A stretch of DNA of 58,286 bases from Corallococcus sp. AB011P (GTDB taxonomy: Bacteria; Myxococcota; Myxococcia; Myxococcales; Myxococcaceae): contig NZ_RAVX01000011.1 of NCBI RefSeq assembly GCF_003611605.1, positions 196,811-255,096 on the forward strand, read 5' to 3'. Under the pieces are notes generated by a model that searched no databases, had not been told where the DNA came from, and was given only the letters and a program-made list of their open reading frames with translations. Position numbers and translations under genes: made by a program. Each line of letters begins with the position of its first letter. Position 1 is the stretch's first letter. Shown in pieces: positions 1-48,928 of this stretch.

Positions 1-3000
1 TTCTGCTTCAGCGAGCCCAGCTGCACCAGGTCCTCCACGCGAGGCACCGAGGCCAGCGTGGCCACGGCGGACGGCGCGGGCTTACCGAGGACCGCGCGGC
101 CGTCCGTGCTCGGCTTGGGCACCGGATCCGTGGCGAGGAAGGGCACGCGCGACAGCTTCGCCACCAGGCCCGGAGGCAGCGTGTCCGTGACGACGAGGAC
201 GCCCGCGCCTCCGCCCCCGCCGCCCGCGTGGCGCACGGTGTTGCCGCGCACCACCGTCTCGCCTCGCCAGTCGATGGCCACCTCGTGGAGCACCGCCTGC
301 GGCAGCGTGTTGCCGCTCTCCAGGAAGACGTTGCCCTTCACCACCAGCTCGCCGGAGCCCACGAAGGAGGCCACCGCCTGGCCCAGTCCGGGCTCGCCCG
401 CCGTGGGCAGGCCCGCGCAGGCGAAGAGGTGGTTGTCGGAGACCACCGTCACGGACAGGTCCGGCAAGAGCCGCAGGCCCGCCACCGCGCAGCCCTCCAG
501 CCGGTTGCCGTCCACGTCCAGCAGCGAGCCCGGATCCGTCGGTGCCTCCGTCAGCAGGTGGCCCGCCGCGCCCAGGGCGGTGATGCCGGTGGCGGTGTCG
601 CGCACGGTGTTGTCCGCCAGCCGCACGCGGCCCTGCACGCCGGACACGAAGAGGCCGTCCGCGGGCGACGGGAAGGTGTCGAAGACGGGGTCCACCAGGT
701 CTCCGGGGTCCGGCGCCTCGCCGCGCGCCAGCTGCTCCAGCGACTTGCGCAGCATGTCCAGGATGGCGTCCAGCGCCTGCATGCCGGTGACGACGGCGAC
801 GAGCGACGCGGAGACCTTGTCGGCGCGCTGGCGCAGGTACTCCTGGAGCCTCGCGACTCGCGACGCGTCGTCCTCGGCGGGGTCCAGGGCCTGCTCCACG
901 GCGCGCAGCAGGACCGCGGCGGCGTCCAGTTCGGCCGTCACCGCGCTGGATCTGGCGACGGCCTCCGCGGCGGTGGTGGCGGGCTCGTCCACCAGCAGGT
1001 GCAGGGCCTGACGCGCGGGCACGTCGCCGTTGCCGCTGGTGAGCGCGGTGATGGCGTCGTTCACGCGCTGGAGCGCCAGCGTGCGGAGCTTCCCCTGGAC
1101 GCCCGCGATGTCCAGCACGCGGTCGTACTGGGAGAGGTAGAGCTGCAACGAGCCGCTGAGCACCGGCCCCGGCGCCATGCCGCGCACCGCCAGCACCAAC
1201 GCGCCCAGGGCGGAGACCCAGCGCTCCAGCGGCTCCGCCTGCACCGGCACGGGCGGTAGGGGCGTGGGCACCGGGAGCACGTCCAGCGTCTGCACCCGGA
1301 TGCGGTCCAGCAGTCCCCGGGCGATGGACACCTGCTCCAACCGATTCTGCGGCTGGGCGATGGCGTTGATCACCGCCTGGTGCGCCTGCAACGAGAGCGC
1401 GGACAGCTCCGCGTCGCCGCTCACCAGCTCGCCCAGCTGTCCCACCGCGGTGCCGAAGGCGCGCAGCTGCTTCTCCACCGTGTCGTCGGACTCGGTGACG
1501 AGGCCCGCCGCCTGCCGGTCCAGATTCGTGGCGTACAGGCCGATGGTGGCGGTGAGCCCCTGCGCCGCGACGCGCGCGCCGTCCTCCGGCGTGACGTCCG
1601 ACGAGGGCAGGACGCCGGTGGTGAAGTCCAGCACCTGCTGGAGCGTGGCGCGCATGCGGTCCACCACCGGCTGCAGCTGGCCGCCCGTGCGCTCCACGTC
1701 GCGGTAGTCCGCCTCCACCTGCGAGGCCAGCGCGGGGTGGAGCTCCTGGAGTTGATCCGTCAGGGCGTCCTTGGACGTGCGCAGCTGCACGAGCACGTCC
1801 GTGTTGGCCGTCGCGCCCCGGGTGCCCGGCTGGAGCGGCAGCTGTTGCAACGCGGCCTGGGCGAAGGTGCCGATGATGGTCTTCTTGGGGCCCACCGCCT
1901 GGCCGATGACGGGCTGCCGCGCGCGCTGCGCCTGCGCCTCGCGCAGCAGAGCCACCTGGCTCAACGCCCCCGCCAGCATGACGATCGCGGCCAGGTCACC
2001 CGGCCCGCCCTGCACCCGGGCCAGGGCCTTGAGGAGGAAATCCTGCGTGTCGGAGGGCAGCCCCTGCACCAGCGAGTCGAAGGCGCCCTTGATGCGGTCC
2101 GCGGTGCTCGCCACGGCGTCCTTGCCGGACACGGTGGCCAGGTCGAACTGCGCCACCATGTCCCACGCCTCCTGGGACACAGGCTCCGGGGCGGTGAAGC
2201 TGGAGGCGCGCGCCAGCGACGAGCGCACCGCGTGCGAGGTCTGGGTGTGATCGTTGAAGCCCTGGGCGGTACGCAGATCCGCCACGTCCGTCACCAGCGC
2301 ATTGAGGACGGAGTCGGGCACGGTCCCCAGGTCCTCCAGCTCCACCACCAGGGTGTCGAGCGGGCCGTACAGGCCCCGGCCGATCTTCTGGCGCCCGTCC
2401 ACGTTCGCGCCCGTGTACTGCAAGAGGGTGCCGTACATGCCCACCACGGCGCCGTGCACGTCCGCGCGCTCCGGGCGGACGGTGGTGCTCGTGACACTGA
2501 GTTGCTGGAGCACCACGGTGATGGGCGGCAGCTTCACGGGCCCTGGCACCGGCGGCGGCTGCGTCGTCGTCACCGGCGCGTGCACGCCGTCCACCTCGTT
2601 GCCCTCCACGGTGATGCCGGAGCCGGACACCACCGCGATGCCCGCCGCGCGCACCTCCGCGTCCGGGAGCCCGGGCGCGCCGTAGGCCTCCGTCCGCCCC
2701 ACCTGGAGCAGCCGGTTGCCGCGCACCTGCGCCTCGTCCACGCCCGAGAGCACCACCGCGCCCCGGAGCGTCAGGCGCTCCAGCCAGCGCAGCGCCGCGT
2801 CCAGGGGGGCGCGCACGCGGGTCGTGGCGTTGGCGAGGAGCGCTTCCACGAGTGGGCGGGGACGGGCCTTCGCGTCCGCGCTCAGCACTGCCTCCAGGCC
2901 CGGGTCCAGGCGGGACAGCGCCAGCGTGTTGTCCTCCTGCGACGGCACGTCCGCGAGCGCCACCTGTTCGAAGCGGTTGTCCTCCACGCGCAGGCGCCCC

Positions 3001-6000
3001 ACCGCGCCGCCCGTGCCCCAGGTGCGCACGGCCGAGTCCCCCAGCGCGCGCACCACGTTGCCTCGGATGCGCACGTCGAACACCGGCTGCGGACCGCCCA
3101 GCAGGATGCCAAAGCCCGGTGTGGACTCGCCGTCTCCCTCGATGCGGTTGTCCACCACCTCCACGTCCGAGGCGGGGCGGCCGTTGGACGCGCCGTCATC
3201 CAGGCCGTCGCCCACGACGATGCCGGCCACCACGCCCAGCACGGACGCGGCGGGCACGGCCGGCAGGGAGATCCACGACTCGCGCACGCGCAGCGCCCGG
3301 CCCGCCAGCTGGATGCCCACCTGGAACAGGCTGTCCGACACGGCGTTGCGGATCTCGTTGCCCACGATGTCCACGCCGTCGCCCGCGACCTGGATGCCCA
3401 CGGCCGCGGAGCCGAGGATCTGATTCTCCGCCACCACCACGCGGTCCACCGGCCCCGCGAGCCCCCCTTCCGCCAGGTCCTGCACCAGGATGCCCACGAG
3501 GAAGCCCTGGATGCGGTTGCCGCGCACCTCCACGCCCGCGAGGAGCCCGTCCGCCACGTGGATGCCCGTGGTCGCGTCTCCCAGCGGCTCAAGCCGGTTG
3601 TTGGTGATGGCCAGCGCGTCCACGAACAGGCCCGCGCGCGGGAAGGACGCGAGGAAGCGCTCCGCGAGATACGGGGCATACGGCGCCACCGCGATGCCTG
3701 TCGCCGCGCCGACGCGGTTCTCGTCGATGACGATGCGCTCGCAGGTGCCCGTCACCAGCACGCCTGTCGCCTCCGAGCCGGCCTGGTTCGCCTGGATGTG
3801 GCAGCGGCGCAGCGTCACGCCGCTGGAGTCCGCCAGCGTCACCACGCCGTGCGGCAGCGCCGCCAGCGCGTCGAGCAGCGGCTTCGCCTCCGGCACGTCC
3901 TCCAGTGGCTGGCCTGGATGCTGGCGTTGAAGCTTGCGCAGTTGCACCAGCGTGGCCACCACGGAACCCGCCGCGCGGCCCTGGCCCGGGACGATGGCCT
4001 TGATGCGGTCGACGACCACGTCCACGAAGTCGGCTTCGGCGGACGGGTGCTTCACGTCGTCCTCCTCCAGCACCCGGTCGTCGTCCACCTCCGCCAGCGG
4101 CACGAAGCGCTGGCCGTTCGTCAAGGCCACGCTCGCCTTCACGGCCTTCACCACGGGCTGGAGGCCGCCGCCAATCACCACGTCCTCGAAGGGAGCCTCC
4201 ACCAGCTTGAAGTCCTCGATGCGCACGTCGCCGTCCAGGCCGCAGCGGTCCACGAAGAAGGCTCCGCCGGAGCCCTGGGTGCGCAGCTCGGTGGCCTCGC
4301 CGTCGCCCAGGAGGTGCACGGAGGACAGGTTGCGCAGCAGCACCGGGTGCTCCAACTTGTAGCGGCCGGCTCGCACGAAGATGGAGCCGCCCTGCCCGCC
4401 CATGCTGTCCACTGCGGCCTGGAGCGCCTCGTCGCCGGTGATGCCTTCGAGCAGGTCCTGGTCCACGTCGCCGAAGCTGCGCACGCCGTCGCCCACCACC
4501 ACCGTGAAGACACCCGGGCCGATGACACGCTCGGAGAGCTCCACCAATCTGTCTCGCACCTGGGCGAGCGGCAGGTAGCGCGGGCGCAGGTCCTCGAAGC
4601 TTCGCGTCGCGCCGCCTGTTACGCGCGCCAGTGGCACGCAGTGGTGCACCGGGCCGTGCACGGGCGCGTCCGTGAGCTGCTCGACTTCCCCCCGGGCCGC
4701 GCCGTCCGCCGCGCGCACTCGCACGGTGAAGGACCAGTATTCGGTCGCGCGCCCTTCCGTGTTGGCGAAGGCCAGGGTGATGCCGTCGTCGAAGCGGTAG
4801 CGCACGCCGGGCACCAGCAGGTCGCCGCCGTCCCACCGGCGCACCACCGCGCCCTGCTCCGGACTGAAGGCCCGGCCCAGCGTGCCTCCCACGGGGAGCG
4901 GCACGGGGTCGGTGGTGAGCACGGCGCTCGCGTCCGCCAGCTCCAGCGTGCCCGTGTCCGCCTGGACGCCTCGCAGCCTCCGCAGCACTGGCAGTGATGG
5001 GCCTTCCGGCTGGAGCCGGGTGACGCTGTCCTCGATGACGACGAGGTCACCCGCGCGCAGCTTCGCGGCGCTCGCGGGGGAGACCTGGAGCGTCATCGCG
5101 TCCGCCGCCGCGGCTGCGGTGAGCGGGAGCACCGTGGAGCCGTTGTCTCGCGACCACAGCACCACCGGCTGCGCGCCGCCCCGGAAGAACTCCACGCGGA
5201 AGTGGAGGTTGTCGGAGCCCGTGTAGCCTTCGCCCGTGGAGGCGTTCTCCGTGGACAGGCAGCGGTCGCGGCAGGGGTCCAGCGGCTCCGGTGGGAAGCG
5301 GTCCGGCAGCGCGCCCTTCGGGATGTTGGTTGTGAGGCGTGCGCCGCTGGTGGGCGTGGGCAGGTCTTCCGCGTCGGTTGCGGCCAGCCCCTGGAGCGCG
5401 CGCACCTGGGTGACGAGCCGCAGGCGCACGGTGGTGTCCTGGCCGTCCAGCGCGGGCTCCTCCAGGAACGCGTCGTCGTACTGGGTGGTGGTCTGCTCCC
5501 AGCAGTCGAGGAAGAAGAAGTGGTGCCGCGAGCCGTCCGTGGGCAGCGCCGCCAGCGGAGGCGCCTCTGGCAGGTCCGGCTGCGCGGAGTAGCGCAGGTC
5601 CTGCTCCAGGAAGACGCGCACGCCGTCGAGCAGCATGCGGCCCGCGCCCGGCAGCGTCCCGTCACCGCCTCTTATAATGATATCGGCGCCCAGCGCCGCG
5701 TCCTCCACGCGCAGCGCGGCCACCCACGTGCGGGCCACGGGCGGCAGGCCCAGCACTCCCCAGGAGCTCAGCTTCGCCGGGTCCACGCTCGCGAACGCGG
5801 CGACGGGGAAGCGCACGTCGTTCCAGCCCGTGGGTCGCTGGCCCAGACCGGCGGAGAGGACCGTCTCGTTCCCTTCCGTGTCCGCGACGACCACTTGCAG
5901 GTCGATGAACTCATCGTCGGTGGGCGGCCGTTCGAAGCGCAAGCTGATGACGAGCGCGGAGGCGGTGAAGGCGGTGCCGTCCGAGCGCGGCACGGCCGTG

Positions 6001-6380
6001 AGATCCAACGGCGCGGGCAGCGTGCGGCGCAGCGCGACGTGGCCCCGGCTGCGCACCACGAAGGGCAGCGTCTCCGTGTCGTAGCGGTCCAGGCGCAGCT
6101 CGCGCGGGATGGTGCGCTCGTCGTCCGCGGGCAGGCCCTGCCCCGTCCAGCCGAGCACGTTGCGGATGGGGTCCACGAGGTACGTGTCGACGATGCGGAA
6201 GCCATCATCGGGCGAGCCCTCGGCGACGTCGGCGGAGCGGCGGCGCGCGTCCACGGTGCGCAGCCGCACCTCCTCGTTCCAGTCGGCGTCGAGGCTCATG
6301 CGCCCCATCTGCTGATAGACGCCAGAGAATCGCCGGGCTTCGTCGAAGCGGGACCTGGAGGTGTACGCTTTCACGGTCAT
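1..6380 (-). CDS. Giant parallel beta-helix repeat protein; tail-fibre or host-recognition candidate and last visible gene of the tail-like operon. At least 2126 aa; the C-terminus lies beyond the window start.
   Basis: The minus-strand frame is open from the ATG at 6380..6378 (MTVKAYTSRSRFDEARRFSGVYQQMGRMSLDADWNEE...) to position 1. It is missing from the ORF track only because there is no stop codon in the window. Codon third positions are almost all G/C; for example the reverse complement of 1..41 reads RVEDLVQLGSLKQ. The long plus-strand ORFs over this region (1380..4997, 228..1259, 5202..6575) have G/C at codon position 1 and an R/H/Q/A-rich composition, so they are antisense shadows. 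The protein carries many V-x-x-N-x-I/L and G-x-x-V-x-G repeats (VDNRIEGDG, VEDNRFEQV, VEGNEVDGV) typical of right-handed beta-helix (PbH1) proteins. Its start overlaps the stop of the upstream gene (ATGA at 6377..6380). Confidence 0.6.
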   Translation of the reverse strand, partial: MTVKAYTSRSRFDEARRFSGVYQQMGRMSLDADWNEEVRLRTVDARRRSADVAEGSPDDGFRIVDTYLVDPIRNVLGWTGQGLPADDERTIPRELRLDRYDTETLPFVVRSRGHVALRRTLPAPLDLTAVPRSDGTAFTASALVISLRFERPPTDDEFIDLQVVVADTEGNETVLSAGLGQRPTGWNDVRFPVAAFASVDPAKLSSWGVLGLPPVARTWVAALRVEDAALGADIIIRGGDGTLPGAGRMLLDGVRVFLEQDLRYSAQPDLPEAPPLAALPTDGSRHHFFFLDCWEQTTTQYDDAFLEEPALDGQDTTVRLRLVTQVRALQGLAATDAEDLPTPTSGARLTTNIPKGALPDRFPPEPLDPCRDRCLSTENASTGEGYTGSDNLHFRVEFFRGGAQPVVLWSRDNGSTVLPLTAAAAADAMTLQVSPASAAKLRAGDLVVIEDSVTRLQPEGPSLPVLRRLRGVQADTGTLELADASAVLTTDPVPLPVGGTLGRAFSPEQGAVVRRWDGGDLLVPGVRYRFDDGITLAFANTEGRATEYWSFTVRVRAADGAARGEVEQLTDAPVHGPVHHCVPLARVTGGATRSFEDLRPRYLPLAQVRDRLVELSERVIGPGVFTVVVGDGVRSFGDVDQDLLEGITGDEALQAAVDSMGGQGGSIFVRAGRYKLEHPVLLRNLSSVHLLGDGEATELRTQGSGGAFFVDRCGLDGDVRIEDFKLVEAPFEDVVIGGGLQPVVKAVKASVALTNGQRFVPLAEVDDDRVLEEDDVKHPSAEADFVDVVVDRIKAIVPGQGRAAGSVVATLVQLRKLQRQHPGQPLEDVPEAKPLLDALAALPHGVVTLADSSGVTLRRCHIQANQAGSEATGVLVTGTCERIVIDENRVGAATGIAVAPYAPYLAERFLASFPRAGLFVDALAITNNRLEPLGDATTGIHVADGLLAGVEVRGNRIQGFLVGILVQDLAEGGLAGPVDRVVVAENQILGSAAVGIQVAGDGVDIVGNEIRNAVSDSLFQVGIQLAGRALRVRESWISLPAVPAASVLGVVAGIVVGDGLDDGASNGRPASDVEVVDNRIEGDGESTPGFGILLGGPQPVFDVRIRGNVVRALGDSAVRTWGTGGAVGRLRVEDNRFEQVALADVPSQEDNTLALSRLDPGLEAVLSADAKARPRPLVEALLANATTRVRAPLDAALRWLERLTLRGAVVLSGVDEAQVRGNRLLQVGRTEAYGAPGLPDAEVRAAGIAVVSGSGITVEGNEVDGVHAPVTTTQPPPVPGPVKLPPITVVLQQLSVTSTTVRPERADVHGAVVGMYGTLLQYTGANVDGRQKIGRGLYGPLDTLVVELEDLGTVPDSVLNALVTDVADLRTAQGFNDHTQTSHAVRSSLARASSFTAPEPVSQEAWDMVAQFDLATVSGKDAVASTADRIKGAFDSLVQGLPSDTQDFLLKALARVQGGPGDLAAIVMLAGALSQVALLREAQAQRARQPVIGQAVGPKKTIIGTFAQAALQQLPLQPGTRGATANTDVLVQLRTSKDALTDQLQELHPALASQVEADYRDVERTGGQLQPVVDRMRATLQQVLDFTTGVLPSSDVTPEDGARVAAQGLTATIGLYATNLDRQAAGLVTESDDTVEKQLRAFGTAVGQLGELVSGDAELSALSLQAHQAVINAIAQPQNRLEQVSIARGLLDRIRVQTLDVLPVPTPLPPVPVQAEPLERWVSALGALVLAVRGMAPGPVLSGSLQLYLSQYDRVLDIAGVQGKLRTLALQRVNDAITALTSGNGDVPARQALHLLVDEPATTAAEAVARSSAVTAELDAAAVLLRAVEQALDPAEDDASRVARLQEYLRQRADKVSASLVAVVTGMQALDAILDMLRKSLEQLARGEAPDPGDLVDPVFDTFPSPADGLFVSGVQGRVRLADNTVRDTATGITALGAAGHLLTEAPTDPGSLLDVDGNRLEGCAVAGLRLLPDLSVTVVSDNHLFACAGLPTAGEPGLGQAVASFVGSGELVVKGNVFLESGNTLPQAVLHEVAIDWRGETVVRGNTVRHAGGGGGGAGVLVVTDTLPPGLVAKLSRVPFLATDPVPKPSTDGRAVLGKPAPSAVATLASVPRVEDLVQLGSLKQ

Positions 6381-9300
6381 GGTCGGCTCATCCGGACGAG
6401 GTCGTCCTGGCTGCGGTCGGCGTGGAAGGGCGTGATGCCAATGGGCATGCTGTCGTCGGTGCGCGCCTGGAGTTCGCGCTCGTGGTTGGAGCGCTCGTCG
6501 TGGGCACCGGGGACTCCGCCGCGCTCGGAGGCGTGGAGCGCTTCGGGGCCGTTGTTGTCGCCCAGGACGAGGTAGCCCGGGTCCGTCTGGCGGTTCGACT
6601 GGAAGGACACGGTGTGCACCCGCGACTGGTGCGACACCGGAGGCTGTCCACCGCGCGCGAGGAGGCTGTAGCGCAGCCAGCCCAGGTCCGGCCGGTCCGT
6701 GCGCACCTCGCCCGCGAAGGCGCAGGAGGACGCCTCCAGCACGCCCGCCTCCGTGGCGCCCAGCACCGTGCAGTGCCGCAGCCGAACGCTCGCGCCCGCC
6801 GCGCGGATGGCGACGGCGTCACGGTCCCCCGCGTCGAAGGTGCAGCCCGCGGCGATGAGGTGCACCCAGGGCGGCAGCTCGATGGCGCCCACCATGCAGC
6901 CGTAGAGGCGCAGCTCCACATCAGCGGGAGGCAGGGAGCGCCGCGCGCTGATGTCCTGGTGCCCACCGCCGGGCATCCACAGTCCCACCTGTCCGGGCGC
7001 GCCCAGGCTGCACCAGCGCAGGTCCGCTTGCCCCCGAGCGAGCACCAGGTCCAGCCGTCCCGCGAGCCACAGGCCCGCGAGCCACACACGCGTGGCCGCG
7101 CTGCCTCCGAAGCCCGGGTAGAGCGCCAGCGAGAGGCCGTGCTCGTCCGCGCCGATGCAGGGCACCGCGCCCGTGTCCGCGGCGAAGAGGGACAGCCCGT
7201 AGTCCAGCCCCTGTGACAGGCGCTCCGGAGCCAGACGCGGCGAACCGATGAGGCCCAGAATCGGCGGCGATCCGGCTGGGCTCTCTTCTGCGAGGTTCGC
7301 GATATCCGGCGGCACCTGACCTTCAGTCGCGACCACCGAGGACGCGCCGGAGTCGAGACCTTGTGCGCCGACCGAGCCGATGGGTCGCGCCTGGCCTCCA
7401 GTCGCCAGCACCACGGACGCGCCGGAGTCGAGACCTTGCTCGATGGTCGCGACGATGGGCCGCTCCTGGCCTCCGGCCGCCAGCACTCCGCCCGCGCGCT
7501 CCGGGGAGATCCACGCGGTGACAGGGAGGCCGGTGCTGGAGCGGTCGCCAGGACGGTCCGGTGGGTCGATGAATGGGAAGTCCGGCTCCGCCCACGCCGC
7601 GGGCGGACGGCGGTCCGGCGGAAGCAGCCCCGCTCCCAATGAGGCGCCCCGCCCTACCCGCGCGGAGAGGGTGACGCGGCCCACGGGCGCGTCGTCCTGG
7701 AGCACGACGCGGCCCAGGCGCGGATCCACCGCGACGATGCCGGAGGCGATGCTCGGAGCGAGCGTCGTCCACGGGCCCAGGCTTCGCTGGCGCAACTGGA
7801 ACGGATGGCGCCGCAGCCGTCCGGGCACCGAGTAGCGCCGCGCGCCACCTGCGACGGAGGCATCCCGCGAGTGGTACGCGCCACCGGGCCGGGAATCGAG
7901 CGGGAGCGGCTGGCCCTCGCGAGGCTCGATGAACGCGGCGCCGTCGTTGGCGACGTTGAAGCGCAGGAGCTCATCCGGGAGCAGGGCCAGCTCTGGCAGG
8001 AACGCCAGGTAGCCGCGTCCGCCCAGTGAGAAGACGACCTCCGACGCGGGCAGCGGCGCCGGATCCACGAGGAGCACGCGACCATCGACGTACAGCGCTT
8101 CGCCCGGAACCGGCGGGTTCGAGCCCGAGGGCTCCAGCAGTCCCGCGACCCAGGCACCCTCGCCTGCCTTCAGCGTCATCCATTGAGGACGCGTCGTGTC
8201 CGCCCAGACAAGCGCCTCCACGCCGTCGGCGGTGGTGGTGGCCACGAGCGTGCCGGGCAGGTTCGCGGTGATGGGCAGCGGGGCCAGGGAACGCCAGACA
8301 GGGCTCGCGGAGGCCGGGTCGCAGGACATCACCGGCACGGCCAGTTCTCCCGTCACGGCCTCGCCGCCCAGGAGCATCAGTCCTTGCGCCGTGCTCAGCA
8401 GCGTCGCGGCCTTGCGCTCCTGGCGGTTGCGCACCGCATGGGGACGCCACGGTCCGCCCGTGACCGGCAGCGACCAGAGGTCTCCGGTGGGCGCGCCACC
8501 CAGGTCACCGCCAAAGACGAAGAGCCGGCCGCCGCGCACGCACAGGCTGGGGGCCAGTCGCGCCGCGGGCTGCCGGGGGCTCGTGGTGTCCAGCCGCGTC
8601 CCCGTCGGAGTCGCGGTGTCCAGGCCTGTCACCGACCACACACCCAGCTTCCCCGTACCGTCAGGTGCCACCAGCAACAGCGAGTCGCCAGCCGCGGCCA
8701 GGGACATACCGGGACCCTCCGGAGGCAACGCGCCGCTGAGCTCCGCCACCTGCCATGGCGCACCGTCGGCGCTCGCGTCGAAGCGGGCAAGGCGCAGGCT
8801 GCCGTCCGCGAGGTGTTGCTCGATGCGCGCGACCCATGCCGCACCGGCCAGGTCCACACGGACGGCGTTGCTGCGCGGAGGCCCCTGGCGCAGGCCCACG
8901 GCGAGGGTGCGCCACGTACCGTCCACGTCGCGCAGGCGCGGATCACCGCTCACGCGTTCGACGAGCAGCGCCGCCGTGGTGCCGCCCAGGAGCTGGTTCG
9001 CCTCCGGCGTGACGGTGACGGTGTTCAGGGCGTCCGACACCAGCTCGGTGGACAGGAGCACCGTGTCCGAGTTCTCACGCGCGGCGAGCAGCGTCAGTCG
9101 CCAGGTGTCTCCGGGCGAAGGCCTGCCCCGGTCCGCGAACCGCAGCGTGGGCGCGGGCCCCACGGGCGCGGTGGGCAGCGGTCCGCGCAGGAGCGGCAGG
9201 GCTTCCGGCCCCACCAGCGGAATGCCGTCGACGGAGACGGTGATGGCATCCGCGCGTTCGGCGGCGTCGGCGTCCTCGGCCAGCGCGGTGGGGGTGAGCA

Positions 9301-39419: not shown

Positions 39420-39451
39420 GGTTTCGGTCCTCCATTTTGCTGCGGGGTTTG

Positions 39452-41889: not shown

Positions 41890-43143
41890 ATGAACCCAGA
41901 CACACTCGCGCGAGTCCTGTGGCAGGAAGGGCAGACCCTGCTGCCCGAACACTTCCGGGCCCAGGAGGAATCCCTCTCCACGGAGGCCCGGCGCTACGCG
42001 GGCTTCGCGGGCCTGCCGGTGGTGGGCGTGAGCGCGCTGCGTTTCAACGATGTATTGCTCGCCAAGGGCTCGGTGGCGCTGGAGGAATTGACCGCGGTGT
42101 TACCGGGCGGCCACCTGGTGGAGGTGCCGGGCAACGCGGAGGTGACACCGCTGTCGCTCGAGGAGACGGGCCGCATGCGGGTGACGGTGTATCTGCACCT
42201 GCTGGCGGTGCTGGAGCCCCGCGAGGACCTGGCGCCCGCGGGCGGTGAAGCCCCCAGCGTGGTGCGCGCGGGACGGAGGCTGTGCCTGTCGTTGGAGCCG
42301 GTGGTGGACGACACGGTGAGCAGCCTGTCGCTGGCCGTCTTCACCCGGAACGCGGACGGGCCCTGGCAGCTGTCCGCCACGCACCTGCCGCCGCTCTTGA
42401 GCGTGGGGCCCCACCCGTTCCTGGAGCCCCTGTTCGAGCAGCTGGACGGCCTGCTCCAGCAGGCGCAGGGGCAGTTGCGCACGTCGCTGCGCGAAGGCCT
42501 GGTGCGAGGCGACCGGCTGGCCAGCGCGCGGCGGGCGCTGTGCGAGGTGCGAAGCCTCCAGGTGCTGCGCCAGGACATGCGCCACGGCCTGCAGCCGCCG
42601 CCGTACCCGCTGGTGCAGGCGCTGCGGCGGCTGTACTTCGAGACGTGCTGCTACCTGGAGGCGGAGCCGGACGACGACCTGCCCGCGTACGAGCACGAAG
42701 CGCCGGGTCCGGGGATCGCGCGGTGGATGGAGCTGCTCACGCGCGGGTTCCGCCCGCAGGCCAGCCCCCTGTCCTACCGGGTCTTCGACTTCCAGGACGG
42801 CCACTTCAAGCTCACGCCGCTGCCCAGGGAGACGCCGCCGCCGGATGACTTCTACCTGCTGGTGCGCCGGCAGGAGCGGGACCGGCCGCGCTCCATGGAG
42901 GGCGTGAAGCTGGCCAGTCCCCTGCGGCTGCCGGCGGTGCGGCGCCAGGCCTTGAAGGGCGTGCCGTACCGGCACGTGGCCTTCCCGTCGTTCCCCCACG
43001 CCTTCGACGCGGACATCGACTGGTACCAGCTGACGCCCCAGAGCGAGGAATGGCAGTCCGCGACGCGCGAGGACGGGCTCACGTTCTTCGCCACGCCCGC
43101 GCTCGAAGGGGCGCAGGTGCTCCTCTACTGGCGCAGGGCCTGA
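41890..43143 (+). CDS. tssK: Type VI secretion baseplate subunit TssK, 417 aa.
   Basis: ARVLWQEGQTLLPEHFRAQEESL matches the TssK N-terminal signature (kilW.EGmfL.PQHFQqqdry). Confidence 0.8.
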   Translation: MNPDTLARVLWQEGQTLLPEHFRAQEESLSTEARRYAGFAGLPVVGVSALRFNDVLLAKGSVALEELTAVLPGGHLVEVPGNAEVTPLSLEETGRMRVTVYLHLLAVLEPREDLAPAGGEAPSVVRAGRRLCLSLEPVVDDTVSSLSLAVFTRNADGPWQLSATHLPPLLSVGPHPFLEPLFEQLDGLLQQAQGQLRTSLREGLVRGDRLASARRALCEVRSLQVLRQDMRHGLQPPPYPLVQALRRLYFETCCYLEAEPDDDLPAYEHEAPGPGIARWMELLTRGFRPQASPLSYRVFDFQDGHFKLTPLPRETPPPDDFYLLVRRQERDRPRSMEGVKLASPLRLPAVRRQALKGVPYRHVAFPSFPHAFDADIDWYQLTPQSEEWQSATREDGLTFFATPALEGAQVLLYWRRA

Positions 43144-43170
43144 CGGCGGACCGACGGGGGAACGGCGCGC

Positions 43171-43749
43171 ATGCCCAAGCTCATCTGCATCATCGACATG
43201 GACAAGGAGAAGGGCCTCATCCTCACCACGGAGGACAAGGACGGGAAGATCCTCCAGACGGTGAAGATGGACGGCGAGGCCATCACCCTGGAGGTGAAGG
43301 GCGACAGCGCCACCAGCACCATCGTGCAGAAGCAGGACAGCGTCACGGTGACCTGCAAGTCCTTCGTGCTGAAGGCGGAGACCATCGAGGTGACGTCCAC
43401 GAAGGCGTCGTCGTGGAAGAGCGACGACACGTTCGCTCTGGAGAGCGCCAAGGCCTTCACGGTCACCACGAAGGACGCGCTGACGCAGACAGCGGCGAAG
43501 GACGCGACCCTCTCCTCGGACGAGGCCGTGACGCTGAAGGCGGCGAAGAAGTTCACCGTGGAGGGTGACGACATCCAGGTGGAGGCCAAGAGCGGCGCGG
43601 TGGCGTTGAAGGCCCCGTCCGTCAAGGCGGAGGGACAGAAGGACATCGCCATGGAGGGAGCGCAGGTGAAGGTGACCGCGAAAGCGAAGCTGGCGCTCAA
43701 TGCGGACGGCGTGGCGGAACTCAAGGGCAGCATGGTGAACGTGGGCTGA
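43171..43749 (+). CDS. Hypothetical K/T/A-rich protein with a repetitive beta-strand motif (192 aa) between tssK and tssL.
   Basis: High GC3. It has periodic segments (VTLKAAKKFTVEGDDIQVEAKSGAVALKAPSVKAEGQKDIAMEGAQVKVTAKAKLALNADG). It has no transmembrane segment and no signal peptide. Confidence 0.5.
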   Translation: MPKLICIIDMDKEKGLILTTEDKDGKILQTVKMDGEAITLEVKGDSATSTIVQKQDSVTVTCKSFVLKAETIEVTSTKASSWKSDDTFALESAKAFTVTTKDALTQTAAKDATLSSDEAVTLKAAKKFTVEGDDIQVEAKSGAVALKAPSVKAEGQKDIAMEGAQVKVTAKAKLALNADGVAELKGSMVNVG

Positions 43750-43761
43750 CGGGGGGGCGCG

Positions 43762-44400
43762 ATGAAGCTCGAGCACTGGCAGGTCGTCTTCACGCAGTAC
43801 CGGCAGGCCCAGTCCGTGCTGGACGGATGGCTGCCGCAGGCCGCGCCCGGGTCGGCCGCGGCGGCGGGGCTTTTGGGCCGCGAGGGCCTGCGCAGGCTCC
43901 ACGACGAGCTCCTGGAGGTGATTGAGCGGCTGCGCGCGGGCCTGGGCGCCCACGCCCGCGACGAGGAGGTGCAGGACGCGCTGCGGCCCTTCACGTACCT
44001 GGTGGACGAGCGCGTCCTCCTGCGGCTCGCGGACGCGGAGCAGCCGCTGTGGCCGCTGTTGCAGTACCGCCTCTTCGGAGAAGACGGCGGCGGCGAGGCC
44101 TTCTACACGCTGGCGGATCAACGGCTGGATCAGCCGGGCTCCCCCGCGCTGCTCTTCGAGATGCTCCACTTCTGCATCACTGCGGGCTTCGGAGGCCGCT
44201 ACCTGGGCCACACGGCGAAGCTGCGCGAGTACCAGGAGCGGCTGTCCGCGCGCATCGTCACGCCCCCGCCGCCGCCCGCCCCCGCCGCGTCCGGCGAGTC
44301 CATCGGGCCGCTGCTCTACGCCTTTCCCGCCCGCTACTACGCCGTCAGCGCCGCGAGCGTGCTGGGGCTGCAGGGCCTGCTCTGGTGGGTGACCCGGTGA
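43762..44400 (+). CDS. tssL: Type VI secretion membrane subunit TssL (DotU family), 212 aa.
   Basis: LLFEMLHFCITAGFGGRY matches the DotU motif (lLElyylCLsLGFeGrY). A C-terminal transmembrane helix reads YYAVSAASVLGLQGLLWWV. Confidence 0.8.
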   Translation: MKLEHWQVVFTQYRQAQSVLDGWLPQAAPGSAAAAGLLGREGLRRLHDELLEVIERLRAGLGAHARDEEVQDALRPFTYLVDERVLLRLADAEQPLWPLLQYRLFGEDGGGEAFYTLADQRLDQPGSPALLFEMLHFCITAGFGGRYLGHTAKLREYQERLSARIVTPPPPPAPAASGESIGPLLYAFPARYYAVSAASVLGLQGLLWWVTR

Positions 44401-44714
44401 AGCCACAAGCCGCCGCACCCCAGGCTCCGGCCGCGGCCACGATCGACGCGGCGCCCGCGCTGCTCCAGGAGGTGCGCAAGACCGTCGCCGCGCGCCTGGG
44501 GGTCGGGCGCCATGGCCTGGAGCCGATGCTGGACGAGCTGGGCCAGACGCTGGCCCGCCTGATGCCGGGGCCGGGTGACGCGCGGTTGTCGCCGGAGGAG
44601 CAGGAGAAGGCGAGAGCGTCGTTCGCGGGCACGGTGGACACGCTGGAGGACGTCCTGGAGGCCCTGCATCGCGCGGGTCGGGCTGGGAACGTCCTGGGCT
44701 GGGGGGAGCGCTGA
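44397..44714 (+). CDS. Small hypothetical protein (about 105 aa; GTG start overlapping the tssL stop) between tssL and tssM.
   Basis: The frame VKPQAAAPQAPAAATIDAAPALLQEVRKTVAARLGV... has a clear GC3 bias. It is the real part of ORF 44049..44714. Confidence 0.4.
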   Translation: MKPQAAAPQAPAAATIDAAPALLQEVRKTVAARLGVGRHGLEPMLDELGQTLARLMPGPGDARLSPEEQEKARASFAGTVDTLEDVLEALHRAGRAGNVLGWGER

Positions 44715-44717
44715 GCC

Positions 44718-47700
44718 ATGGATGTCATCAAGAAACTGATCGCGTTCATCCCACCGAAGTGGAAGCCCTACGCGCTGCTCCTCGTGGCGCTGCTGGCCAT
44801 TGGCATTCCGCTGTTCCTCGTGTGGCGCGCGAAGCGCAAGAGCGCGCCGGCCGGAGGGACCGCCGCGCCGGAGCCCCTGGCGAAGAACCGGCTGCGCAAG
44901 GTGCGCGAGAAGTTCCTGGCCGGGCTGCCCCTGCGCCACCGGGTGGCGGTACGGGACCTGCCGGGTGTGGTGGTGATGGGGCCGGCGGGCGCGGGCAAGT
45001 CGCGGCTCATCGAGCTGGACCTGGACTGGAAGCGGCAGGCGCGGCAGTTCCTGCCCAGCCTCCTCACGGACTCGCTGCTCCAGGTGTACCTGGGCGCGGA
45101 CGTCGTCGCCCAGGAGGTGTCCCCGCAGCTGTTGGAGGACGAGTCGCCCCAGGCGCGCGAGGCCCTGCGCCGGCTGTGGAGGGACAGCTTCGGCGGCGGT
45201 CAGCAGGCGCTGGCGGTGCTGGTGCTGGACGCGCGCTGGCTGCAGGACACGCCCCCGGACGAGGTGCGCCGGGCCGCGCAGCTGTTGCGAGGCAAGCTCA
45301 ACCTGCTGGCGGAGGTCCGCGGGGGCGCGTTCGAGACGCGCGTGTGCCTCACCCACCTGGATGAGCGCGAGGGCTACGCGGACTTCGCGAAGCTGCTGCG
45401 CGCGCACCACGTGCCGCTGCGCTTCCCCCTGCCCCCGCCCGGCCAGGAGGGCAAGCTGGGCTCGCTGCTCAAGGCGCAGGAGCAGTACCTGGCGCTGGGC
45501 CTGACGGCGCTGCCGGTGGAATCCTTCGAGCGGCTGGAGCGCTTCTATTCGGAAGGCCACGCGCCCTTCGAGGCGCTGTCGCGCTTCGTGACGGCGCTGA
45601 TGGAGGGCCAGACGCTGGCGTACGCGCCCCGGCTGGCCACGGTGTCGCTGTCCTCCGCGGACAAGGACGCGAGGGATCCGGACGTCCTCTCGGTGTCCGC
45701 CGAGGCCAGCACGGCGCGAGCGGTCCACGACCGCTACCTGCACACGCACCTGCGCCGGGCGGTGCTGCTGGGCCTGGCGTTCGCGCTGCCGCTGCTGGCC
45801 GCGTACGGGCACTTCGCCTGGAGGCTGGGCCAGGCGAGCACGCGCGTGCAGCGCTTCGAGGACATGGTCCAGCGCATGCGCGACCAGGGGCAGGCGGTGT
45901 CCGGGGCCGCGGTGCAGGAGCCGGTGCTCGCGGCAGGCCACTCCCTGGACTCGCTGTGGAGCGCCATGAACACGTGGCCGCTCTTGCGCTACAGCTTCAC
46001 CGGCGCGCGAGAGGACCTGCGCCAGCGTCTGGCCCGGGGCATCCGCGAGGCGCACATCCGGCCCGCGCTGGAGAAGTGCCACCGCCAGCCGGACACGTGC
46101 CGTCCGGAGCAGGTCGTCTACCTGCTGGCCACGTTGCACGGCTCGCGCGAGGAGCCGCTGGGGCAGCTGGTGCTGTCCAGCCTGAAGACGCGCCCGAACT
46201 GGAGCTTCGTGTCGGAGGGAGGCACGGCCGAGCCCGCGGGCGACGTGGCGGCGCTGGAGGCAGGACGCTCGTGGGTGACGGCGGTGGGGCTGAACGAGTC
46301 CCTGGTGGCCGACTACGTCACCATGAGCAACCCGCCGTGGTCCGCGCCGGACACGCCCGAGGCCAGCTGGGCGCGCTGGCCCTTCCCGGAGCCGCTCACG
46401 CTGGAGGCGCAGCTGATGCCGTGGCAGGCGCACCTGCGGCGGTTGCAGGACCTGCTGGCGAACCGGGCCGTGGAGCCGCGCGAGCTGGAGCGGCTGGACG
46501 CGGACCTGGAGGCCATGCAGGACGAGCGCCGCAGGCTCCAGGCGCTGCTGGACGACAGCGCGCGCTTCAGCAGCCTGCCGCGAGCGTTGGAGCTCCTGGC
46601 CGCCTCCGAGGCGCGCGTGGACACCAGCCGCTTCCGGGGCATCCCCTCCACGCTCAAGACGGTGGCGTGGATCAACGACCACCGGGACGCGCTGACGAAC
46701 GTGCTGCGCATGGAGGAAGAGGCGTACCTGGGTGTGAAGGCGGTGCAGAAGATGACCGTGGCGGAGCTGCTGGTGCGCGACGGCCTGTGGCTGCCGGGCA
46801 ACGGCCCCGCGGTGCTCCAGGTGCCGGTGCTCCAGAGCACCTTCGAATTCCGGCCCAAGGACGGCTCGCGGCTGCTGCACCAGGCACTGCTGCGCTACCA
46901 CGAGAAGACGGGGCGCCTGCCCTTCGGCGTGATGGAGGGCGAGGAGGCGGTGGCGTCGCGCAGCGGCGCGACCCTGGCGGCGGACCGGCTGGAGTTCGAC
47001 ACGCGGCTGCGCCCGCTGGTGGACGAGTTCACCACGCGAATCAAAGGCGCGGGGCTGCCGGTGGAGGAGGTGTCGCAGCGCCAGGAGCACGTGCGCCGCA
47101 AGGTGAACCAGTTCGCGTACCAGTACCGCAACCGCCTCTTCCAGCGCGTGTCCACCTACCGCTTCCAGGCGGTGATTCCGGCGCTCCTGGCGGAGGAGCT
47201 GTCGCGTCTCACGCAGCCGTCCTCGGAGCTGGTGGACATGCTGCGCGACGTGGCGCAGGGCGTGGCGCTGGAGCCGTTGGACGGGCCCTTCTACGAATCG
47301 CTGCGCAACGCGGTGGCGCCGTTCAAGCCCATCGCCACGGTGATGAAGCCGGACGAGACGGGCAACTACACCGCGCTCAACCCCTACCGCGCGCTGGTGG
47401 CCCAGATGTCGGACGAGCTGAACGCGGTGCCCCGTCCGGGCGTGGTGCCCGCGGAGGCGACGGCGTCGCTCAACGGAGGCCTGGCCACCGGCAGCGCGCA
47501 GCCAGCGAGCGGGGCCGCGAAGCTTCCGGAGCTGCTGACGCCGCTGGGGCGCCTGGCCTTCGCGATGATGCTGGAGGACGACACGTCCTACCTGCGCAAG
47601 GTGGACGCGTGGCTGGACCAGCAGGGGCTCATCGGAGAGCTGCGGCAGCCCTTCCGTCAGCCGTTCCTCGCGGTGCGCGAGCTGGGGCAGCGCGAGATTG

Positions 47701-48419
47701 AGAGGACCCTGGAGCGGCAATGGGACGACGCCTCGGGTCGGTTCCTGCGTCCGCTCTTGGGGCGCTATCCGTTCACGCCGGACGCGTCGCAGGAGGTGGA
47801 TCCGGGAGACCTGGAGGTCCTGCGCAAGCAGGACGGAGCGTTCTGGGAGTTCGTGACGCGGGTGCTGGCGCCGGTGTGCGAGGAGCGAGGCTCGGAGTGG
47901 GTGGCGCGAGGCGCGCTCCAGTCCCGGCTGTCGTTGCCGCAGGGGATGTTGCCCACGCTGGGGAGGCTGTCGCGGCTGGCCCGCATGTTGTGGGACACGG
48001 AGGGGAGGCCGCGGCCACTGATGCTGCAGGTGATGCCGTTGCCACTGCCGAAGGCACCCACGCAGGGCAGCTTCGTGACGCTGGGTTCGCTGAAGTGCGG
48101 CAAGACGACGTTCCTCGCGTACAACCAGAGTCCGTCGTGGCAGGAGTTCCCGCTGGCGTGGTGGGACCAGCAGACGGCGTCGCTGATGCTGGAGGTGCGA
48201 GCGCCCGCGGACCAGTCGGTGCAGTACGCGTCGCTGGAGAAGTCGCGTTCGGCGTGGAGCTGCTTCCGGCTGCTGGAGTCGTCCCAGTCCACGGAAGACC
48301 CGCAGCACCGCCGTTGGTCGTTGAGAGCGCGAGGCGCCACCTCCACGGACGGGGTGATGGACCTGCGCTTCGGGCTCAAGGGTGAGCCCTGGATCCCGTT
48401 CCGCGAGGTGCCGCGATGA
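44718..48419 (+). CDS. tssM: Type VI secretion membrane subunit TssM (IcmF), 1233 aa.
   Basis: N-terminal transmembrane helices (YALLLVALLAIGIPLFLVW). Walker A is GPAGAGKS. The size matches IcmF. The gene overlaps tssJ by ATGA. Confidence 0.85.
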   Translation: MDVIKKLIAFIPPKWKPYALLLVALLAIGIPLFLVWRAKRKSAPAGGTAAPEPLAKNRLRKVREKFLAGLPLRHRVAVRDLPGVVVMGPAGAGKSRLIELDLDWKRQARQFLPSLLTDSLLQVYLGADVVAQEVSPQLLEDESPQAREALRRLWRDSFGGGQQALAVLVLDARWLQDTPPDEVRRAAQLLRGKLNLLAEVRGGAFETRVCLTHLDEREGYADFAKLLRAHHVPLRFPLPPPGQEGKLGSLLKAQEQYLALGLTALPVESFERLERFYSEGHAPFEALSRFVTALMEGQTLAYAPRLATVSLSSADKDARDPDVLSVSAEASTARAVHDRYLHTHLRRAVLLGLAFALPLLAAYGHFAWRLGQASTRVQRFEDMVQRMRDQGQAVSGAAVQEPVLAAGHSLDSLWSAMNTWPLLRYSFTGAREDLRQRLARGIREAHIRPALEKCHRQPDTCRPEQVVYLLATLHGSREEPLGQLVLSSLKTRPNWSFVSEGGTAEPAGDVAALEAGRSWVTAVGLNESLVADYVTMSNPPWSAPDTPEASWARWPFPEPLTLEAQLMPWQAHLRRLQDLLANRAVEPRELERLDADLEAMQDERRRLQALLDDSARFSSLPRALELLAASEARVDTSRFRGIPSTLKTVAWINDHRDALTNVLRMEEEAYLGVKAVQKMTVAELLVRDGLWLPGNGPAVLQVPVLQSTFEFRPKDGSRLLHQALLRYHEKTGRLPFGVMEGEEAVASRSGATLAADRLEFDTRLRPLVDEFTTRIKGAGLPVEEVSQRQEHVRRKVNQFAYQYRNRLFQRVSTYRFQAVIPALLAEELSRLTQPSSELVDMLRDVAQGVALEPLDGPFYESLRNAVAPFKPIATVMKPDETGNYTALNPYRALVAQMSDELNAVPRPGVVPAEATASLNGGLATGSAQPASGAAKLPELLTPLGRLAFAMMLEDDTSYLRKVDAWLDQQGLIGELRQPFRQPFLAVRELGQREIERTLERQWDDASGRFLRPLLGRYPFTPDASQEVDPGDLEVLRKQDGAFWEFVTRVLAPVCEERGSEWVARGALQSRLSLPQGMLPTLGRLSRLARMLWDTEGRPRPLMLQVMPLPLPKAPTQGSFVTLGSLKCGKTTFLAYNQSPSWQEFPLAWWDQQTASLMLEVRAPADQSVQYASLEKSRSAWSCFRLLESSQSTEDPQHRRWSLRARGATSTDGVMDLRFGLKGEPWIPFREVPR

Positions 48420-48928
48420 AACCGTGGGCAAGCTGCATCCCCTTGGCGCTGTGTTTCCTGGCCGCGTGCCAGCCGAGCACGCTGCATCTCAGTGTGAAGG
48501 CCCCGTCAGGGACGAACCAGGGCCGGCCGCTGTACATGCTGGTGCGCAAGGTGGATCCAAAGCAGTTCGCCGTGGAGTCCTACGGCGAGGTCTCCGCGCG
48601 CATCTTCCAGCCGGACGCGGACGTGCTGCTGTCGGCGCTGATCTATCCGGGCACGCTGCAGCGCCTGAAGGTGCCATTGCCGGAGAACGCGCCGGTGGCG
48701 GTGTCGTTCCTCTTCACCGCGCCGGACGGCACCTGGCAGCAGTTCGTCAACACGCCCACGCCAGGCTCGCTGGACATAGAGCTACTCGAAGGGCGCATCC
48801 GCACGGGCACCCAGCCCGCGGCGCCCAAGGAAGGCGACGACGCGGCGAAGCCGCCCGAGCCGCCCGCCGCCCCGAAGCCCCCACCCTCCTCTTCCGCCAA
48901 GGCCCCGGCCCTCCACGCCGAGAACTGA
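48416..48928 (+). CDS. tssJ: Type VI secretion lipoprotein TssJ, 170 aa.
   Basis: A lipoprotein signal with a LAAC lipobox (MKPWASCIPLALCFLAAC). PLYMLVRKVDPKQF resembles the TssJ vRvYQLk motif. The gene follows tssM. Confidence 0.7.
   Translation: MKPWASCIPLALCFLAACQPSTLHLSVKAPSGTNQGRPLYMLVRKVDPKQFAVESYGEVSARIFQPDADVLLSALIYPGTLQRLKVPLPENAPVAVSFLFTAPDGTWQQFVNTPTPGSLDIELLEGRIRTGTQPAAPKEGDDAAKPPEPPAAPKPPPSSSAKAPALHAEN

Follow-up and report, generated by a model that had tools for sequence, protein, structure and literature searches.

The stretch of Corallococcus sp. AB011P DNA analyzed here (58,286 nucleotides of contig NZ_RAVX01000011.1, referred to below as the window) encodes two different contractile machines side by side, a phage-tail-like contractile injection system (CIS) and a type VI secretion system (T6SS). 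The interpretation we favor, with a probability of roughly 70%, is that these are two self-sufficient injection systems, without shared parts, which have become neighbors through the history of the Corallococcus genome; functional coupling between them appears to be lacking. The side-by-side arrangement would thus be a feature of a single genus, made up of two separable modules, and not a composite machine. The juxtaposition alone is of modest interest; the main value of the region lies in the identity of its T6SS, which may represent a widespread Francisella-related family with an associated pseudoenzyme of the ANL fold.

Genes were called from third-position GC (GC3) bias (the GC content of the window is about 72%) and annotated with Pfam and NCBIfam; start codons in the tail operon were refined, and the gp25 and DUF1622 genes were fixed by means of annotated orthologues. 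One window protein is 100% identical to its Corallococcus sp. AB011P counterpart, and tssC has exact copies on a Corallococcus draft contig. The gene content obtained in this way agrees with the earlier note on this DNA in placing two different machines back to back. The tail-like CIS operon occupies positions 1-25976 on the minus strand and runs off the left end of the window. It is followed on the plus strand by genes for a DUF1622 protein and a histidine kinase, and then by a coupled trio encoding proteins of 346, 560, and 128 amino acids (aa), the last of them a DUF4280 protein. The first two genes of the trio overlap by 4 nt and the second and third by 1 nt, and the stop codon of the DUF4280 gene ends at 32432, a single base away from the end of the convergent tssF stop codon at 32434, a spacing that the earlier note had also given correctly. 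The same note had described all five genes as a 6-kb linker. They are present as named, but the division was wrong: the trio (29327-32432) is part of the T6SS cluster, which with it runs from 29327 to 48928 and ends with an IglE-like gene (48416-48928). The true spacer is about 3.3 kb long (25977-29326) and contains only the DUF1622 and kinase genes (26249-29164).

As judged from its distribution, the trio is a tip and accessory module of the T6SS and not a linker, because its 560-aa and DUF4280 genes track this T6SS family across phyla where there is no tail locus. To collect relatives of the T6SS, a TssF alignment was used to search GTDB, each species being represented by a single genome; the best 80 of 174 confirmed stretches were kept, taken with 10-kb flanks, and searched by tblastn with every window protein, the resulting counts being bounded by flank size. 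The 80 loci come from Myxococcota, Syntrophales, Desulfobacterales, Methylococcaceae, Planctomycetota, and Psychromonas. A small VgrG gene was detected in 76 of them, a 543-aa spike hub gene in 65, the IglI and 560-aa genes in 49 each, and the DUF4280 gene in 34. In Syntrophales, Desulfobacterales, Methylococcaceae, and other Myxococcota, the 560-aa and DUF4280 genes accompany the T6SS with no tail-like locus nearby. The gene order in Syntrophus and Desulfobacterales is TssM-IglE-(560-aa gene)-TssB-TssC-tube-TssK-TssE-PdpA-like-VgrG-TssF-DotU-TssG-IglI, while in Methylobacter and Myxococcota the 560-aa gene adjoins that for DUF4280. In terms of the Francisella order (pdpB-iglE-vgrG-iglF-iglG-iglH-dotU-iglI-iglJ), both positions of the 560-aa gene are iglF contexts, the one after iglE/vgrG and the other before iglG, and the runs TssM-IglE-(560-aa) and TssF-DotU-TssG-IglI of the relatives have parallels there.

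The first protein of the trio (29327-30367, plus strand, 346 aa) is predicted to be secreted, with a signal peptide, a beta-barrel-like sequence pattern, and a weak match to an NCBIfam TraB N-terminal model. Its gene was found only in Corallococcus, Archangium, and Vitiosangium (loci L002-L010), always beside the 560-aa gene, and including loci where there is no tail locus. The second (30364-32046, plus strand, 560 aa) is recognizable from its AlphaFold2 (AF2) model, Foldseek matches, and synteny as a conserved T6SS component of ANL fold: the model has a pLDDT of 88.9 and aligns over its full length with acetyl-CoA synthetases at a TM of about 0.7. Public records label this protein “AMP-binding protein / long-chain fatty acid-CoA ligase.” An LLFSPLANPSD-like sequence takes the place of its P-loop, and both the P-loop and the A10 catalytic lysine are gone in all homologues examined. 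We infer a pseudoenzyme, which would have a structural, adaptor, or cargo role at the spike tip. The third (32046-32432, plus strand, 128 aa) is a PAAR-like spike-tip protein of IglG type (Pfam DUF4280, 3e-35, 122 bits). It scores 60 bits against the NCBIfam IglG model, for which the cut-off is 200, and lacks the N-terminal extension of IglG, since the alignment begins at profile position 57 (and covers positions 57-170 only).

How general is the adjacency of the two machines? Tail-locus genes lie within 10 kb of the T6SS in only five of the 80 loci, all of them Corallococcus-like, and beyond the genus each machine stands by itself. By locus tags, tssF and the 652-aa gene that opens the tail operon are six to seven genes apart in at least nine further strains, and at least 14 Corallococcus genomes have the two machines side by side. 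Corallococcus macrosporus shows the arrangement of the window, with flanks equally diverged from it (92.1 and 92.3% identity by blastn). The equal divergence of these flanks and the conserved distance of six to seven genes argue for vertical inheritance within the genus, and the adjacency fits a single ancestral Corallococcus arrangement, passed on vertically and then broken up by independent losses.

Each machine also occurs at this site without the other. Corallococcus coralloides DSM 2259 lacks the T6SS here, its gene order being RHS - rhomboid - kinase - DUF1622 - tail locus; it matches the window at 95% from position 14020 to 29164, which is the last base of the kinase stop codon (blastn). 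Conversely, C. coralloides KYC2213 has the T6SS, the trio, the kinase, and the DUF1622 gene at this site and no tail locus; its blastn match (94%) runs from 44099 down to 26149, inside the intergenic region between the DUF1622 and 652-aa genes, beyond which lie a 435-aa gene and a leucine-rich-repeat gene. Neighborhoods were also looked up in the reverse direction, starting from homologues of the 652-aa gene (L082-L085). In two distant tail loci (L084 and L085, 45-50% identity), which are not accompanied by a T6SS, the operon likewise begins with the 652-aa gene, and the flanking genes are unrelated, with a sigma-54 activator gene in one and a peptidase gene in the other. In Archangium and Vitiosangium the T6SS, complete with the trio, is flanked by LysR regulator, acyltransferase, and methyltransferase genes, and no tail locus is found there. 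In Corallococcus sp. CA053C (L007:14877-20229) the machines are adjacent, but the spacer consists of HEAT-repeat, subtilase S8, and other genes and has neither the DUF1622 nor the kinase gene. The comparison proposed with the earlier note's suggestion of a functional coupling has thus turned up unlinking, in DSM 2259, in KYC2213, and at the distant loci, which is largely the outcome the note itself had named as making coupling unlikely.

The two spacer genes form a stable piece of chromosome, on either side of which a machine may be present or absent independently, because the breakpoints in DSM 2259 and KYC2213 fall on either side of them: they are retained beside the tail locus alone in the one strain and beside the T6SS alone in the other. 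The DUF1622 gene (26249-26623, plus strand) encodes a membrane protein of 124 aa, identified from its translation and GC3 and from a DSM 2259 orthologue carrying PF07784; an open reading frame on the minus strand (26013-26369) was considered as an alternative DUF1622 gene and rejected, its GC3 being only 0.51. The kinase (26723-29164, plus strand) is an orphan cytoplasmic histidine kinase with three PAS regions followed by HisKA and HATPase_c domains (Pfam), and is missing at the locus in CA053C, Archangium, and Vitiosangium. A separate observation concerns a 200-bp copy of the 3′ end of the kinase gene in DSM 2259 (L082:4288-4478; 79.5% identical to window positions 28829-29028), which lies about 2.3 kb past the kinase stop codon, with the RHS gene on one side and the rhomboid gene on the other, at the site where the T6SS is missing; it may be a rearrangement scar.

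Three points count against the view of the machines as mere neighbors. The absences of the T6SS in DSM 2259 and of the tail locus in KYC2213 hold for this site only. The adjacency has been kept in at least 14 genomes, including that of the divergent CA053C with its different spacer, and could reflect selection for linkage. Finally, two sequence motifs stand side by side only in the tail-operon leader and in the tssB/tssK intergenic region, with a simulated P of about 8.5e-04 before allowing for the 21 pairs of regions compared.

These motifs bear on the best surviving alternative, in which a common transcription factor, possibly downstream of the PAS kinase, binds a shared operator and both weapons are deployed together. 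They came from a comparison of seven intergenic regions (21 pairs) for shared words. The 12-mer TGCCCTGGAGGG is present at 25986-25997 and 41731-41742 and the 11-mer GAAACCAGACA at 26004-26014 and 41744-41754, with no further copy of either in the 58 kb; the first copies are in the divergent intergenic region that includes the tail-operon leader (25977-26248; known from leader alignment A8, motif searches, and blastn breakpoints), and the second copies in the divergent tssB/tssK region (41581-41889). A core, GAANCCAGAC, has three copies where 0.38 would be expected, all at operon heads, the third overlapping the tssK start codon (41892-41901). The P-value given above is the chance of at least two separate shared 11-mers between the tail leader and the tssB/tssK region. 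It is only this co-occurrence of two motifs that is unusual; a single local alignment of the leaders falls short of significance, 20 of 300 shuffles scoring at least as high.

The copy in front of the tail operon lies in well-conserved DNA. The leader contains a conserved TTGACG-N17-TCATTGTC element (minus strand, within 25977-26130), which resembles a sigma-70 promoter in alignment A8, and downstream of it a 5′ block of about 60 nt, TGCCGTGACGCAGCAGCTTGAAnCCAGAC, conserved in eight of eight Corallococcus loci including the most divergent; the tail-operon motif copy is within this block. The kinase gene is also suggestively placed, lying 163 bp upstream of the trio and pointing the same way, with the tail operon in divergent orientation, and adjacency of the machines is common in Corallococcus. 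Yet the motif pair was found post hoc among 21 region pairs, and the two sites do not agree in how the motifs are spaced and oriented to each other. CA053C lacks the T6SS copy, which is kept only in closer relatives; these are about 90% identical, so that conservation there says little, and the 12-mer is poorly conserved at the T6SS site. There is no response regulator gene nearby, and the kinase stays when either machine is absent and is itself missing in CA053C, where both are present. Nothing resembling a promoter or terminator, and no Rfam feature, was found that ties the units together: promoter and terminator scans of 25800-32600 gave nothing above shuffled controls, a search of the tail-operon leader for the sigma-54 consensus found none, and no Rfam family matched in the window. 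The motif pair may be a shared operator and as such is a testable lead, a weak hint of co-regulation; we consider joint deployment of the two weapons unlikely.

Much less probable is the acquisition of the whole 49-kb region, with both machines, as one mobile island, which the earlier note had also raised and which the data do not support. Points in its favor are the contiguity of the two loci, the lower GC content around tssBC (0.63-0.65) and in the right flank (0.59-0.66), and the clean replacement of the T6SS side at the kinase stop codon in DSM 2259. Against this, the GC content of the tail locus is that of its surroundings (0.72-0.74), the window is without a tRNA gene, and Pfam scans of it found no integrase or transposase. 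The T6SS of Archangium and Vitiosangium has housekeeping-type flanks and no tail locus, orthologous tail loci occur elsewhere without a T6SS, and the known breakpoints separate the halves on either side of the kinase pair instead of removing the whole region.

The third suggestion of the earlier note, a tip or cargo module common to both machines in which the DUF4280 protein, perhaps with the 560-aa protein, caps both spikes, draws on the location of the DUF4280 gene between the two loci and on the Pfam result that the visible part of the tail operon shows no PAAR-type gene, but is highly improbable given that DSM 2259 has an intact tail locus and no DUF4280 gene in the 10 kb upstream, that the distant tail loci L084 and L085 likewise have none nearby, that the gene is overlap-coupled to the 560-aa gene and tracks the T6SS family across phyla, and that its Francisella homologue, IglG, is a T6SS component (PMC5014421, PMC5349215).

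Two self-sufficient neighbors thus remain the preferred reading, and the question becomes what kind of T6SS the second one is. Its sheath points to Francisella, the host of the T6SSii subtype, as distinct from the canonical T6SSi. The best match of TssB among solved structures is Francisella IglA (96 bits; the next, Myxococcus xanthus TssB, scores 59), and that of TssC is Francisella IglB (421 bits, against at most 363 for T6SSi sheaths). The TssC of the window is 43% identical to IglB and 41% to VipB; for TssC proteins of the family the ranges are 41-45 and 36-42%, while IglB and VipB are 35% identical to each other. In a neighbor-joining tree with a single T6SSi outgroup, IglB joins the stem of the window's T6SS family. 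The family profile of the 543-aa hub (A2) has one match in the PDB, a weak one, to Francisella PdpA (6u9e, E 3.4e-04), and that of the small VgrG (A7) matches the C-terminal part of VgrG 8gra (E 5e-06) and, weakly, nearly the full length of Francisella VgrG 6u9e_B (E 9e-04). The T6SSii features recognizable in the window are, in sum, an IglA/IglB-type sheath, an IglE-type lipoprotein gene following that for TssM/PdpB, IglI, and a spike split between PdpA and a small VgrG; one that was not found is the N-terminal helix of IglG that binds IglF.

Some of the evidence runs counter to this affiliation. TssB, TssC, and TssK pass canonical T6SSi equivalog models (TssB and TssC the general models TIGR03358 and TIGR03355); the assignment of the tube proteins and the equivalence of the 560-aa protein to IglF are without sequence support; and the Francisella relationship itself rests on best matches, two weak profile matches, and a tree with one outgroup. 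TssE, TssF, and TssG are recognizable by canonical models, yet far below their cut-offs, and TssL and TssM are far below theirs as well. TssA, ClpV, Hcp, and full-length VgrG were not detectable in the window by Pfam and NCBIfam, so that the 13 core genes of T6SSi are not all represented; by the same databases, PdpC, PdpD, PdpE, and AnmK were not found among the window genes. Sequence similarity of window proteins to IglF and IglC was not detected, and those equivalences are proposed from gene position and size.

The T6SS genes proper begin, on the minus strand, with a TssF-like baseplate protein equivalent to IglH (32434-34101; Pfam T6SS_TssF 1e-21, NCBIfam TssF equivalog below cut-off). Next are the 543-aa PdpA-like spike hub (34105-35736), whose gene directly precedes that for the small VgrG in most relatives; TssE (35733-36119; gp25-like, Pfam GPW_gp25, and 38 bits with TIGR03357, below cut-off); a TssG-like baseplate protein in the position of IglJ (36134-37078; weak Pfam and TIGRFAM TssG matches, with TssF-DotU-TssG-IglI synteny kept in relatives); and a protein of the IglI family (37092-38075), which scores 240 bits against a cut-off of 100 with NCBIfam NF041244, over profile positions 2-289 of 290. 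The sheath subunits are TssC, the large one (39452-40969; Pfam VipB), and TssB, the small one (41020-41580; Pfam T6SS_VipA), for which a start at 41703 is an alternative; both are also encoded on the minus strand. Directly after tssC is the gene for a 215-aa putative inner-tube protein in the IglC/Hcp position (38772-39419, minus strand), followed on the opposite strand by that for a 199-aa paralogue (38115-38714, plus strand; GC3 0.86), which is conserved in relatives. The two are 26% identical (E 1e-12), and the position of the 215-aa gene after tssC is kept in 45 of the 80 loci. No sequence match to either protein was obtained among solved structures, and the family profile of the 215-aa protein found nothing in the PDB; from their position, the paralogues are probably the IglC/Hcp-like tube proteins.

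On the plus strand, beyond the tssB/tssK region, lie TssK (41890-43143; TIGR03353 at 320 bits against a cut-off of 100, with T6SSi TssK as PDB matches); the small VgrG of 192 aa, consisting of the beta-helical needle only (43171-43749; profile A7 and a weak NF041249 match); DotU/TssL (43762-44400; Pfam DotU 1.6e-16); a TssM/PdpB-like membrane-complex protein of 1233 aa (44718-48419; Pfam IcmF_helical and IcmF_C, with TIGR03348 at 56 bits, far below cut-off); and an IglE-like outer-membrane lipoprotein equivalent to TssJ (48416-48928), whose gene overlaps the tssM stop codon. The last has Pfam IglE_N at 108 bits against a cut-off of 26, and 37 bits with the NCBIfam IglE equivalog, for which the cut-off is 75.

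In the right flank (48938-58286, GC 0.59-0.66), an open reading frame that begins 10 nt past iglE encodes a 1956-aa protein made up of Ig-like repeats of the HYDIN/ASH/DUF1573 kind; genes for a 659-aa protein with a faint alpha/beta-hydrolase match, a pentapeptide-repeat protein, and a DUF3304 protein are also present. These may be cargo or accessory genes of the T6SS. A second, paralogous Francisella-like T6SS cluster was observed in Corallococcus, Myxococcus, and Pyxidicoccus (L074-L081, among them C. carmarthensis at L076, Pyxidicoccus at L080, and Myxococcus dinghuensis at L074). Its TssF is about 36% identical to that of the window, and it has its own IglI, IglE, DUF4280, and 560-aa-type genes, so that some genomes carry two such systems.

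The tail operon, all on the minus strand, opens with the 652-aa gene (24018-25976). This gene is lineage-specific and is known here by its position: it is directly upstream of the sheath gene in every locus, even at 45-50% identity. No Pfam or NCBIfam family matched its product. An AF2 model (pLDDT 73.5) contains a lectin-like beta-sandwich, and Foldseek returned weak, low-TM matches of jelly-roll or lectin-like type; the idea of a sheath paralogue was rejected, BLASTP showing no similarity. The 775-aa contractile sheath follows (21680-24007; Pfam Phage_sheath_1 and Phage_sheath_1C), then two gp19-type tube proteins (21117-21680 and 20601-21092; the Pfam Phage_T4_gp19 E-values for the pair are 1.7e-29 for 20601-21092 and 1.7e-19 for 21117-21680), a 291-aa conserved protein (19724-20599; weak Pfam matches, position kept in L082-L085), a small conserved gene for 70 aa (19493-19705; an open reading frame with counterparts of 66-72 aa at the same position in L082-L085), and a CIS_tube protein of 242 aa resembling a tube initiator (18768-19496; Pfam CIS_tube 3.4e-06).

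Spike and baseplate genes make up the remainder: a LysM/tail protein X-like protein of 92 aa (18479-18757; weak Pfam Phage_tail_X and LysM, position kept in relatives), a 395-aa spike/hub protein of Phage_GPD type (17292-18479; weak Pfam Phage_GPD, with orthologues scoring PF05954; start refined), a gp25-like baseplate wedge protein of 124 aa (16918-17292; known from its translation and from L082/L083 orthologues carrying PF04965), a Baseplate J-like protein of 1255 aa (13154-16921; Pfam Baseplate_J, with an annotated orthologue of 1255 aa in DSM 2259), a putative baseplate assembly protein of TIGR02243 type (10656-13157; NCBIfam 1.3e-42, start refined), and a 1290-aa protein combining a P2 gpI-like baseplate domain with a Kelch beta-propeller (6377-10249; Pfam Tail_P2_I 4e-07 and Kelch). 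The left end of the window truncates the operon inside the gene for a giant DUF6519/right-handed beta-helix protein (1-6380; more than 2126 aa; Pfam DUF6519 and Beta_helix, GC3 0.92), the C-terminus of which lies beyond the window. The ATG of its gene, at 6380, abuts the upstream stop codon, and the protein is a probable fiber or receptor-binding component of the tail-like machine.

The content of this operon is that of the CIS/extracellular CIS (eCIS) superfamily, with a sheath, gp19-type tubes, and gp25, gpJ-like, and gpI-like baseplate proteins together with a spike in one operon. Capsid, portal, terminase, and TssJLM membrane-complex genes were not found in 1-25976 by Pfam, nor were genes for an Afp15-like AAA+ ATPase or a DUF4255 cap seen there by Pfam and NCBIfam, the operon continuing past the left end. 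The earlier label of the locus as extracellular-type is an unproven assumption, because the nearest identified solved sheaths, 8BKY (278 bits) and 8BL4 (268), are those of cytoplasmic CIS of Streptomyces (PMC10066040). A further structure, 9ezm, scores 302 bits, while Pvc2 and Afp3 score 147 and 141; the sheath is much nearer to the Streptomyces cytoplasmic systems than to Afp and PVC, and release from the cell cannot be assumed.

Under the preferred reading of two independent machines, the first would consist of a sheath, tube, spike, and baseplate, with very large beta-helix and Kelch fiber-like proteins, the lineage-specific product of the 652-aa first gene, and no membrane anchor. The second would be anchored by an envelope complex of the IglE-like lipoprotein, DotU, and the TssM/PdpB-like protein, with a baseplate of TssE, TssF, TssG, and TssK plus IglI, and would use an IglA/IglB-like sheath around a tube drawn from the two putative tube paralogues. 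Its spike would combine a PdpA-like hub, the small VgrG needle, and a DUF4280 tip of IglG type, with a catalytically dead ANL-fold protein presumably in the place of IglF. The sheath would be disassembled by ClpB, as in Francisella, because there is no ClpV gene in the cluster.

T6SSii has so far been treated as a Francisella trait. TXSScan records it only there (PMC4793230), a 2026 survey adds one Dongshaea genome (PMC13098142), and another 2026 paper states that Francisella uniquely possesses it (PMC12955703). A comparison of Corallococcus genomes scored T6SS as absent from most species (PMC8466578), whereas strains of C. exiguus, C. coralloides, and C. macrosporus carry the cluster described here; probably, pathway-based annotation misses this T6SS family. 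Literature searches returned no description of a Francisella-like T6SS in Myxococcota, nor of tail-locus/T6SS adjacency in Corallococcus. At the level of annotation the Francisella link has already been noticed implicitly, in that the window protein passes an NCBI model named “IglI family.”

A wider proposal, for and against which we find the case about evenly balanced, is that the window's T6SS belongs to a large undescribed family related to Francisella T6SSii (loci in at least 80 GTDB species), which keeps recognizable TssE, TssF, TssG, and TssK and so bridges T6SSi and the “orphan” Francisella system. The family could help to assign roles to PdpA, IglH, IglI, and IglJ, and to IglF as an ANL-fold pseudoenzyme partner of the tip, and its Corallococcus members might share an operator with the tail system. 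If these are true relatives of T6SSii, they would offer culturable, non-pathogenic hosts for Francisella-type components and an evolutionary route from the canonical T6SS to the Francisella system, along with a conserved component that was not expected, a catalytically dead protein of adenylate-forming-enzyme fold linked to the spike tip.

Among known systems, the tail-like machine is closest to the Class II CIS (dbeCIS subclade IId, with the Streptomyces CIS, and more distantly Afp, PVC, and AlgoCIS). The operon architecture is common to them: a sheath, two gp19-type tubes, a tube initiator, LysM, spike, gp25, gpJ- and gpI-like baseplate proteins, and fibers, and in the visible operon neither a membrane complex nor capsid genes. 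Unlike them, the Corallococcus operon always opens with the 652-aa gene, which lacks a known family, and its baseplate and fiber proteins, among which Kelch and beta-helix domains occur, are of very large size (950 to more than 2100 aa).

The T6SS resembles that of the Francisella island in having its nearest sheath relatives in IglA and IglB, an IglE-type gene after that for TssM/PdpB, IglI, a DUF4280 tip, a two-part spike with a PdpA-like hub and a small VgrG (about 190 aa), and no ClpV gene in the cluster. It differs in its hosts, not an intracellular pathogen but free-living Myxococcota of high GC content, together with Syntrophales, Desulfobacterales, Methylococcaceae, and Planctomycetota. 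The N-terminal helix that IglG uses to bind IglF is missing from its DUF4280 protein, the protein at the IglF position is of ANL fold and shows no detectable similarity to IglF in sequence, a pair of tube-like paralogues is encoded, and PdpC, PdpD, PdpE, and AnmK are not present. With the canonical T6SSi (the M. xanthus sheath 5urw, and VipA/VipB of Vibrio cholerae) it has in common a TssBC sheath, a TssEFGK baseplate, and a TssJLM-like envelope complex, but M. xanthus TssB and TssC score 59 and 343 bits where Francisella IglA and IglB score 96 and 421. Since its DUF4280 protein is without the IglG extension, PdpC, PdpD, and PdpE are absent, and the phylogeny is based on a single outgroup, we do not class the system as T6SSii in the strict sense; it is better described, from its sequences, as a putative relative of the Francisella system in which more of the canonical features are preserved.

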